This document shows, in pieces, positions 30,377-32,047 of a stretch of DNA of 41,012 nucleotides. The notes under the pieces were generated by a model that ran no database searches, was not told the origin of the DNA, and saw only the letters and a program-made list of their open reading frames with translations. The translations under genes were made by a program, and so were the position numbers. Numbering within the stretch: position 1 is the first letter of the stretch; every line of letters begins with the position of its first letter. Source of the stretch: an uncultured Methanosarcinales archaeon (GTDB taxonomy: Archaea; Nanobdellota; Nanobdellia; Woesearchaeales; DSVV01); contig CAZPXC010000005.1 in assembly GCA_964590935.1 (NCBI GenBank), forward strand, positions 1-41,012. Reading direction: 5' to 3'.

Positions 30377-32047
30377 ATGAAAATAAAGGGGTTACTTGTT
30401 CTTGGAATTGTTTTAGTGATAGGATCATTTGCTTTTACCGAAAATATTAGTGCTGCAGATGTTTACATCACCCAAACAGCTGGCGGAAGCGATAATGGTG
30501 CGAGTTGTACGGATGCTCACTCGATTGCCTGGCTGAATACTGCAGGCAACTGGGCAAATCCTAAGCAAGCCGGAAAAGTAGGGCCAGGGGATACAGTGCA
30601 TCTTTGCGGCACTTTGACAACAGCCTTGACAATCCAGGGGAGCGGCTCTTCAGGAAGCCCCATTACGATTCTTTTTGAGCCTGATGCGAAATTTTCCAGT
30701 CCTGTCTGGAGTTCCAGTGGTGCGATTTCAGGCTCTGGCGAAAGCTATATTATCATCGATGGCGGTTCAGGAGGTATTATTGAGAACACTGACAGCGGCT
30801 CTGCCGCAGGGGGGTATGGAAGTCAGCAGGGCAGCCAGGCGATCAGGCTCGACATGGGCCCGCATGATATCGGAATAAGGAATCTGATCATTCAAAACAT
30901 GTATGTCAGGACAGACCCGGGCGATTTTAGCGATGGTGCAAGAGGTACCGGAGGAATATATTATTATGGGGGGAGTAATTTTAGTGTTCACGATTGTCTG
31001 TTCGATTATGTTCCCCGTTCTGTGGATGCTGTAGGTTCGGGTGCGATGATAACAGGGTGGTCCTTTTATAATAATAATGTGACTAACGGGCATACTGGTT
31101 TTGTTATAGCCCCATGTACAGTAAACGGTAATATATATGGGGTACTGTTTCATGACAATATCATAAACCTTGGACCGCACTGGTCTTTTAACGATGACTC
31201 CGACCAGTGGCACGCTGAATCTGTCCATACTCATACAGACTGCGCTGCTGGTAGCAGAATAGACAACGCCAGGTTCTATAATAATGTCTTTGGTCCTCAA
31301 ACCCCTATGAAGGCTTCAGCCAGTGCCAGCACCGCCTGGCTTTATCTGGAGGCGAGGCAGGCCGATACCCTGATTTATAATAACCTGTTCCTTATTGATC
31401 CTGGCTATGGCCCGACCAACGGCGTTATAGCTGTTTCATACAGGGATAACAGCGATGGCATGAAGATCTATAACAATGTTATCATAGGAAGCAGTTCTGA
31501 GGAGAGTAATGCAATCGATTATGGTAATTCTGGAGATGAAGGTCTGGAGATTAAAAATAATCTCATTGAGCATATCCGGCATGGTATCTATATCCCTGAT
31601 GGGCTTAGCTTATCATCAAAAAGCCAGATAGACTACAATGTTTATTACGATGTGAATCATTGGGGCACAGGCTTTGGTTCATGGTCAGAATGGAATGCGC
31701 AAGGATATGAAAGTCATTCCACCAATGGTTTTGCACCTTCTCTTGATGCAGACTACGTGCCCACTTCCAGCGATACTGTTGTAAAAGATAAAGGTGTCTC
31801 TCTGTCTTCTTATTTCACGACAGATAAACATGGGGTTACAAGACCACAGGGCTCCGGCTGGGACATCGGCGCCTATGAATATGTTTCCGGAACCGCAACA
31901 TCAACATGTACATCTGATGCAGATACTGATGGTGATTCAGTGGTTTCAAATGAAGAATTAATAAGTTATATTTCACAATGGGAATCAGGAACAGTTACGA
32001 TCGGCGACCTGATTGCCGTGATAGATGAGTGGAAGAACGGCTGCTGA
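30377..32047 (+). CDS. Array paralog K: secreted beta-helix protein ('AADVYI' class, paralog of G) with C-terminal tag
   Basis: Signal peptide MKIKGLLVLGIVLVIGSFAFTENISA. ADVYITQTAGGSDNGASCTDAHSIAWLNTAGNWANPKQ (near-identical to G). RPQGSGWDIGAYEY. Tag 31907-32044. Confidence 0.85.
   Translation: MKIKGLLVLGIVLVIGSFAFTENISAADVYITQTAGGSDNGASCTDAHSIAWLNTAGNWANPKQAGKVGPGDTVHLCGTLTTALTIQGSGSSGSPITILFEPDAKFSSPVWSSSGAISGSGESYIIIDGGSGGIIENTDSGSAAGGYGSQQGSQAIRLDMGPHDIGIRNLIIQNMYVRTDPGDFSDGARGTGGIYYYGGSNFSVHDCLFDYVPRSVDAVGSGAMITGWSFYNNNVTNGHTGFVIAPCTVNGNIYGVLFHDNIINLGPHWSFNDDSDQWHAESVHTHTDCAAGSRIDNARFYNNVFGPQTPMKASASASTAWLYLEARQADTLIYNNLFLIDPGYGPTNGVIAVSYRDNSDGMKIYNNVIIGSSSEESNAIDYGNSGDEGLEIKNNLIEHIRHGIYIPDGLSLSSKSQIDYNVYYDVNHWGTGFGSWSEWNAQGYESHSTNGFAPSLDADYVPTSSDTVVKDKGVSLSSYFTTDKHGVTRPQGSGWDIGAYEYVSGTATSTCTSDADTDGDSVVSNEELISYISQWESGTVTIGDLIAVIDEWKNGC
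31907..32044 (+). other. 46-aa C-terminal tag (K)
   Basis: CTSDADTDGDSVVSNEELISYISQWESGTVTIGDLIAVIDEWKNGC-stop. Confidence 0.8.

Follow-up and report, generated by a model that had tools for sequence, protein, structure and literature searches.

The stretch of DNA analyzed here, which we refer to as the window, comprises 41,012 nucleotides (nt) and represents contig C5 (CAZPXC010000005.1) of a Woesearchaeota archaeon whose metagenome bin spans 1.69 Mb. The bin consists of 122 contigs, is 87% complete and has a GC content of 46.5%. According to the listing of open reading frames (ORFs), 16 plus-strand genes, designated A to P, fill the window from 11.5 kb to its end. Our subject is one of these genes, K (30377..32047), which encodes a secreted beta-helix protein of 556 amino acids and is a mosaic, stitched together from short pieces of at least three neighbours, most likely by ordinary recombination between similar genes. 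All features of the window described below lie on the plus strand unless stated otherwise.

All 16 genes of the array are complete ORFs with a signal peptide. The bodies of the encoded proteins are highly diverse: beta-helix proteins of several families, LamG/TIG-type proteins and further types occur. Apart from the truncated P, the array genes all end in a C-terminal module of about 46 residues with the consensus C..AD.DGD..VS..EL..YIS.WK.G.V.I.DLIAAI.EWKNGC, followed by the stop codon. This module, here called the tag, is carried by 36 ORFs genome-wide, and outside this genome it is present in records of Woesearchaeota and Pacearchaeota. The array genes resemble each other at the nucleotide level in three stretches: the end of the choice-of-anchor-Q body with the peptide motif WDIGAYEY, the C-terminal tag (~140 nt), and the gene junction with its promoter and signal peptide. 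In most array genes a TTTTTAAA box is located about 25 nt upstream of the ATG, immediately past the stop codon of the previous gene. Unlike the other junctions, those between C and D (17458-17475), D and E (19056-19070), and G and H (25394-25405) have near-zero intergenic DNA and no TTTTTAAA box; these gene pairs are probably co-transcribed.

Two perfect runs of identity connect K with gene I (27065..28474, 469 amino acids), the probable donor. Positions 28286-28336 of I equal positions 31859-31909 of K (51 nt, TGGGACATCGGCGCCTATGAATATGTTTCCGGAACCGCAACATCAACATGT), and positions 28406-28445 of I equal positions 31979-32018 of K (40 nt). Both runs had been reported in an earlier, sequence-only reading of the window, which also placed them across the end of the beta-helix and the tag. 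The runs are indeed identical base by base, and they encode WDIGAYEYVSGTATSTC, which comprises the end of the body and a linker, and a part of the tag. The two pairs have a common offset of 3573 and neither extends by a single base leftward. In a search of the whole 1.69-Mb genome allowing up to 6 substitutions, the 51-mer was found in I and K only, and the 40-mer was found without mismatches in I and K and with 2 substitutions in N. The two runs rank fourth and fifth longest among the 15 exact repeats of at least 25 nt in the window, all of which join paralogs at equivalent positions, and the median length of the longest perfect run over 231 tag pairs is 11 nt. The significance of the K-I tract was evaluated by a GENECONV-style column permutation in three tag sets, where the global probability of a tract of this length was p = 0.036 (14 window tags), p = 0.056 (22 tags), and p = 0.005 (the WDIGAYEY-bearing subset).

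Between the W of WDIGAYEY and the stop codon, the DNA of K and I is 87% identical and the synonymous divergence (dS) is 0.30. The N-termini and middles of the two proteins are 30% and 23% identical, respectively, with dS saturated in both. When the junctions of K, I, B, and N are aligned four ways, the 3' end of K resolves into blocks of different affinity. I-type patch 1 (31859..31909, WDIGAYEYVSGTATSTC) is identical to I at all 51 positions and matches B and N at 20 of 51 positions each. The following segment, which encodes the calcium loop of the tag (31910..31946, TSDADTDGDSVV), is B-type rather than I-type (31/37 matches with B, 22/37 with I, and 25/37 with N), and painting of this segment placed B, C, L, and J at the top. 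I-type patch 2 (31947..32047) extends from helix 1 through helix 2 to the stop codon and contains the 40-nt run. Its helix 1 part (31947-31978) matches I at 25/32, B at 21/32, and N at 27/32 positions, and the remainder with the end of helix 1, helix 2, and the stop codon (31979-32047) at 67/69, 55/69, and 61/69 positions, respectively. The stretch 32048..32270, made up of the intergenic promoter (aaatatTTTTTAAAtcctg...) and the beginning of gene L, is B/C-type by block identities and blastn. The promoter (32048-32089) matches that after I at 29/37, that after B at 36/42, and that after N at 34/42 positions; the signal peptide of L (32090-32150) matches J, C, and O at 32/58, 49/61, and 33/61, and its N-terminus (32151-32270) at 39/104, 82/120, and 41/120. 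The I-type tract therefore stops at about the stop codon of K. Outside the I-type patches, the tag, intergenic region, and L junction of K resemble the B tag with its intergenic region and the C 5' junction (15633..16003; 76.3% over 372 nt by blastn against 31905-32270).

The same pattern emerges from the informative nucleotide sites between 31859 and 32150, which are, in order, I-type (31 sites), mostly B-type (10 of 11), mixed, I-type (12 sites), and again mostly B-type. The alternation of I and B blocks is non-random, with 25 runs in 101 sites (p = 1e-5 by permutation in the runs test). The claim that the 3' end of K matches I is thus correct as far as the overall closest relative is concerned (by tree and dS) and fails for the calcium loop, the promoter, and the start of L, all of which are B/C-type. 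The calcium loop of I itself (28337-28372) reads ADATRDG and not the D-x-D-G-D of other tags, with the best match to any other tag at 15-17 of 24 nt; either calcium binding may have been lost in I or the segment may come from an unsampled donor.

In the DNA tree of 22 tags, K groups with I (support 92/99) and G groups with B and H as (G,(B,H)) (92/93). The (K,I) group has support 99/93 after addition of 30 tags from the comparison genome described below. The approximately unbiased (AU) test on the tag DNA rejects (K,G) with p = 4.5e-4, and rejects with p ~ 1e-116 the in-genome body clade (K,G,C45_1789), where C45_1789, the G000:C45 ORF ending at minus-strand position 1789, is the in-genome relative of K by body. 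The assignment of the G tag to a different subtype, common to B and H, is borne out both by this tree and by nucleotide identity (81% between G and H, 75% between G and B). The flanks of I are N/O-type, with I-N matches of 62/69 for helix 2, 34/37 for the DNA between the genes, and 53/58 for the signal peptide that follows, and the 3' end of I that holds both runs (28286-28474) continues as an N/O-type junction into J (86.6% by blastn of 28339-28609 against 37956-38231). The patch-1 linker, SGT-A-TSTC, recurs as SGT-TSTC in C73_760, the body paralog of I, and the linker in C45_1789 is SGTPTASC.

At the opposite end of the gene, K resembles gene G (23696..25396, 566 amino acids). The common 5' block (30318..30683 in K, 23638-24002 in G; 80.9% over 367 nt by blastn) takes in the final 18 nt of the tag before it, a TATA-type promoter, the signal peptide, and some 100 codons. 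It represents the best self-match of the whole window and includes a 56-nt perfect run (K 30512-30567, G 23831-23886). Between K and G, dS rises from 0.66 in the N-terminus to saturation in the middle and is 1.18 at the 3' end, and the first 80 residues of K are 84% identical to G compared with 52-70% to external homologs. The sequence-only reading was right about this 5' match but it also took G for the true body paralog of K, which the middle of the gene contradicts. The stretch 30684..31858, the beta-helix middle up to ...TRPQGSG, represents a body lineage of its own and is closest to untagged homologs outside the genome. A search through 5.8 billion proteins yielded numerous untagged homologs of the K body that cover about 90% of K. 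The middle of about 400 residues is 39-49% identical to the external homologs P0002-P0014, whereas its identity is 32% with G and 30% with C45_1789. In the tree of this region K falls among the external homologs, apart from (G,C45_1789) (96/93), and the AU test rejects (K,G) with p = 0.014. The body tree of in-genome paralogs alone contains (K,G,C45_1789) with support 83/91. Because the middle of K is closer to external homologs than to G, the 5' match between G and K is itself an exchanged block.

The amino acid sites of K that are informative with respect to G and I change their affinity along the gene, with G:I matches of 46:2 in the N-terminus, 46:28 in the middle, and 5:14 at the 3' end, and a breakpoint signal is significant with p ≤ 1e-4 by the max-chi-square permutation. 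The histories of the 5' end, body, and 3' end are thus incongruent, as the AU tests of the tag and the middle indicate, with the rejection of (K,I) by the body being marginal. The external body homologs of K stop just past WD[IV]GA[YF]E or bear other C-terminal modules, such as Flg_new repeats (P0008), Dockerin_1 and fn3 (P0052), or a Gly/Cys segment with a hydrophobic segment and an Arg-rich tail (P0011). The position of untagged external homologs as the closest relatives of the K body suggests that the body may have been acquired horizontally and received the archaeal tag afterwards. One of the more distant matches to the K body is labelled Deltaproteobacteria.

Gene G is likewise a composite by blastn and painting, combining a Cys-rich linker common to M, N, and O with a tag of the B/H subtype. 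Positions 25169-25401 of G are 80.3% identical to positions 37864-38096 of N over 233 nt by blastn. The linker module, CG.G.CESGETPA.CPADC, is located between body and tag and occurs in G, M, N, and O only (25169-25401, 35630-35885, 37864-38096, and 39675-39935, respectively). It appears to be another mobile piece, one that makes the 3' end of G resemble that of N.

The relationship between tags and bodies was also evaluated over the array as a whole. Among the 14 alignable paralogs in the window, the similarity of the bodies shows no correlation with that of the tags (Spearman/Mantel rho = 0.001, p = 0.99). Tag similarity is only weakly related to the similarity of the downstream junctions (Mantel rho = 0.19, p = 0.12), so that the cross-gene junction, seen as a unit in single cases, lacks significance as a general unit of inheritance over the array. 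How far apart two genes lie in the array does not predict the similarity of their tags (rho = 0.06, p = 0.57), and distance was rejected as a factor. For comparison we used the closed, single-contig genome of the same genus, G003 (OY970338.1, 1,838,930 bp), which contains 30 tagged genes in three arrays located at about 1.00-1.03, 1.05-1.08, and 1.16-1.19 Mb (L019-L024). Body and tag similarity are also unrelated there (rho = 0.02), and the same gene is the nearest neighbour for both in 1 of the 30 genes. Two tag pairs of G003 are 100% identical and belong to genes that have other genes as their nearest body relatives by BLAST score. The G003 tags follow a species-specific consensus, ...SISELINYISQWKAGSVTIGNLIDAIGKWKSGC, and the 14 window tags form one clade against the 30 G003 tags (100/99). 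The mean nucleotide identity of tags is 0.68 within genomes compared with 0.59 between genomes. For bodies C, D, and L, the matches in G003 equal or exceed those within their own genome, although at 29% identity these body relationships to G003 are not firm. The monophyly of the window tags is consistent with concerted evolution. The proposal that tags are exchanged independently of bodies therefore holds in that the two histories are uncoupled in both genomes. It does not hold in the sense of a tag moving as a unit, given that the calcium loop of K is B-type.

Tracts of a similar kind are found elsewhere. The genes C45_1789 and C92_5077 (G000:C92:3203-5077) have unrelated bodies and share a 98-nt perfect run that starts at SGWDIGAYEY and continues into the tag. 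Their dS is 0.31 at the 3' end and saturated elsewhere, and the tract is significant with a GENECONV-like global p = 0.0005. To judge from these alignments, the pair presents a second, independent case of the left border seen in I and K. Genes B and H also differ in their bodies and have in common a 3' block of about 440 nt (15396-15839 and 26648-27084, 76.6%), which consists of an Ig-like SLSTDEAATCRYS... domain and the tag and contains 60 nt of perfect identity (15662-15721 and 26911-26970; global p = 0.0005). The same Ig-like domain also occurs inside M.

We consider it quite likely that K arose through recurrent ectopic (interparalog) gene conversion of short patches between members of the tandem array. 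Homologous recombination would start in locally similar stretches, namely WDIGAYEY, the tag helices, and the promoter with the signal peptide, and tens to about 100 bases would be copied from one paralog to another while the bodies stay in place. In K, two I-type tracts (31859-31909 and about 31947-32047) would have been written into a 3' end of B/C junction type, and the promoter with the first ~300 nt would have been exchanged separately with G. Over the array, conversion would uncouple the history of the tag from that of the body and keep the tags of one genome similar to each other relative to those of a sister species. The moving units would then be conversion tracts of roughly 50-100 nt and not whole tags, as the block pattern of K indicates. 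The genome encodes RadA (282.6 bits), and the tract borders lie where the paralogs are locally similar, with no special repeat or other marker at the borders. The observations themselves are the identities, the segment-specific synonymous divergence, the incongruent trees, and the pattern of patches, from which we infer the mechanism of recombination and its direction; a benefit is conceivable, for example if conversion kept all tags compatible with one docking partner. With moderate confidence we propose that the direction was from I to K, since the flanks of I continue as an N/O-type junction and the patch-1 linker is found in C73_760.

Several points weigh against this interpretation. The global probability for the K-I tract is borderline in two of the three tag sets (0.036 and 0.056). 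Body data from in-genome paralogs alone do not reject (K,I) (AU p = 0.055-0.095), a marginal outcome attributable to the very long branch of I. The direction depends on the continuity of the flanks and on one partial paralog, C73_760, which is cut by the end of its contig. The 40 relatives searched, including three genomes of the same genus, yielded tag-level matches only and no ortholog of K, so there is no pre-conversion allele for comparison. The 40-nt junction between the K body and patch 1 had 0 exact matches among metagenome contigs; that the contig is likely to be correct across the patches is argued from its sequence.

The identical stretches could be an artefact of assembly or consensus, if an assembler or polishing step mixed reads of I and K. 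The bin is a fragmented one, and repeated tags are a classic trap for assemblers. However, I and K differ on both sides of the runs (7/29 matches before patch 1, 22/37 between the patches), which means that a mis-join would need several switches within 190 nt; moreover, the reading frames are open, both genes are full length, and the uncoupling of tag and body recurs in the closed genome G003. This explanation is therefore very unlikely. Alternatively, no exchange took place and the common stretches of I and K were inherited vertically and frozen by selection on the protein or on the nucleotides (codon use, or an RNA or DNA element). At the protein level, many paralogs do conserve WDIGAYEY and the tag helices. 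Nevertheless, the WDIGAYEYVSGT codons, all identical between I and K, vary at synonymous sites in C45_1789, C92_5077, E, and J, and the linker ATSTC, which is unconstrained, is likewise identical in I and K, so that selection at the protein level cannot explain the identity. An RNA element as its cause was also rejected, as the patches have no match to an Rfam family and no unusual RNA fold (fold z-scores +1.07 and -1.21). With bodies 23% identical and saturated in dS, and with the 51-mer private to I and K and the 40-mer found elsewhere only in N with its 2 substitutions, vertical inheritance is close to refuted.

A different possibility is that intact modules were shuffled, that is, unequal crossing-over at WDIGAYEY or in the tag re-assorted bodies with whole units of tag, promoter, and next signal peptide, and K obtained the tag of I in one piece. 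Such a process corresponds to the exchange of tags proposed in the sequence-only reading and to the model of Tsuru & Kobayashi for the lpl cluster. This would agree with the entire 3' end of identical type from WDIGAYEY onward in C45_1789 and C92_5077, with the whole Ig-like domain and tag common to B and H, and with the likeness of the I/J to the N/O junction and of the B/C to the K/L junction across the gene border. In K, however, the I-type signal is broken by the B-type calcium loop and ends at the stop codon, past which the promoter and L are B/C-type, and the array-wide relationship between tag and downstream junction is weak; we regard whole-module shuffling as unlikely. A programmed cassette system could likewise be imagined, in which the junctions serve as dedicated recombination sites that re-tag and re-promote bodies in the manner of antigenic variation loci. 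The number of patches and exact repeats, the recurrent use of the WDIGAYEY boundary, and the nature of the products as surface proteins of an episymbiotic lineage would fit such a system. Yet every gene has its own signal peptide in a complete ORF and most are preceded by a TATA-type promoter of their own, silent cassettes and a single expression site are missing, and with neither a recombinase nor a special repeat at the borders, these fall wherever local identity allows. A programmed system is accordingly hard to credit.

The tag may work as a docking or anchoring handle, although membership in the dockerin family is not established. In K, a choice-of-anchor Q domain (NF041518, residues 471-502, 33.8 bits with a cut-off of 25) directly precedes the tag, which is 46 residues long and bracketed by Cys. 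The same family matches G with 42.6 bits at residues 446-489, and I does not exceed the threshold despite its WDIGAYEY motif. Compared with the GC-type dockerin model NF041540 of NCBIfam, the tag scores 21.8 bits, below the cut-off of 29; it has no match to PF00404 (dockerin), and EF-hand_1 is sub-threshold with E = 0.004. No cohesin (PF00963) was matched in the genome at its 87% completeness. The AlphaFold model of the tag consists of a loop and two helices, with a predicted local distance difference test (pLDDT) score of 89.9. A fold search of the PDB with this model returned nothing below E = 1 and no dockerin, the two-helix hairpin being too small to place. The tags fall into the subtypes I/K/N (WESGTVTIGD), B/G/H (WKSGSVSISD), D/E, L/M, and A/J. 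One could speculate that these subtypes represent distinct docking specificities for different surface receptors and that patch conversion re-targets enzymes between scaffolds, but we consider this quite improbable. If it were true, the array would be a minimal, cohesin-less cellulosome-like system with address labels that recombine independently of their cargo.

Upstream of the array, the minus strand (2807-5569) encodes a Cys-rich repeat protein of 920 residues with a C-terminal membrane anchor. Its gene contains an internal direct repeat of 457 nt (3674-4130 and 4247-4703) with 72.5% identity.

Gene K and its neighbours provide a record, at the resolution of single base pairs, of recombination between paralogs in a DPANN archaeon. 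The tags and promoter junctions of a large family of secreted proteins evolve in concert, while their bodies come from unrelated lineages, some of them probably bacterial. For annotation and phylogeny the array teaches caution: trees of these surface proteins built on whole genes have no meaning, and the closest paralog depends on which 100 nt are examined. The present analysis adds the fine structure of the K 3' end, the demotion of G as the body paralog of K, and the replication in a second genome. The process is a known one in a new setting, and no new mechanism is involved. The literature searched held no description of such gene conversion for an uncultured DPANN archaeon, and nothing specific on dockerin-like tags in Woesearchaeota or on concerted evolution in archaeal tandem arrays.

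Among known systems, antigenic variation from silent cassettes of the pilE/pilS or vlsE type relies on one expression site and promoterless, truncated donors. The present array is different, with complete ORFs in 16 of 16 genes, most of them with the TTTTTAAA box. The tag resembles GC-type (NF041540) and classical (PF00404) dockerins in its acidic D-x-D-x-D-G loop followed by a helix, in its Gly-Cys end, and in its C-terminal position on many different secreted proteins. It differs from them in having one calcium loop instead of two and a score below the cut-off, in a genome with no Pfam cohesin. The choice-of-anchor architecture (NF041518), where one body family is combined with any of several C-terminal anchoring or sorting domains, is a close parallel, and in K, I, C45_1789, and C92_5077 the tag junction is located exactly at the WD[IV]GA[YF]E end. 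Here the anchor is a 46-residue module with one loop and two helices that ends in WKNGC and has no curated model above its cut-off.

The lpl cluster of Staphylococcus aureus is comparable in its organization. In the report on that cluster (Tsuru & Kobayashi 2008, PMC2568036), the 5' and 3' parts of the lpl ORFs have incongruent histories, and the 3' region, the stretch between the genes, and the following gene's 5' region are inherited together as a cross-gene unit. Both are tandem arrays of secreted or lipoprotein-like genes, and the likeness of the I/J to the N/O junction and of the B/C to the K/L junction recalls this unit. In lpl, recombination takes place in a conserved region at the centre and the cross-gene unit stays intact, whereas in the present array the conserved parts are at the gene ends and the unit, apparent in single cases, is not significant over the array (rho = 0.19, p = 0.12), with the K junction broken by I-type patches. 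The closest correspondence is with ectopic gene conversion and concerted evolution in tandem families, as analyzed by the GENECONV approach of Sawyer and in a survey of prokaryotes (PMC6053082). Common to both are short tracts of identity between otherwise highly diverged paralogs, low synonymous divergence inside the tracts alone, segment-specific phylogenies, and a greater likeness within a genome than across species. What sets the present array apart is that homogenisation is confined to the C-terminal tag and the junctions between genes, and the catalytic or binding bodies that they connect belong to unrelated families.

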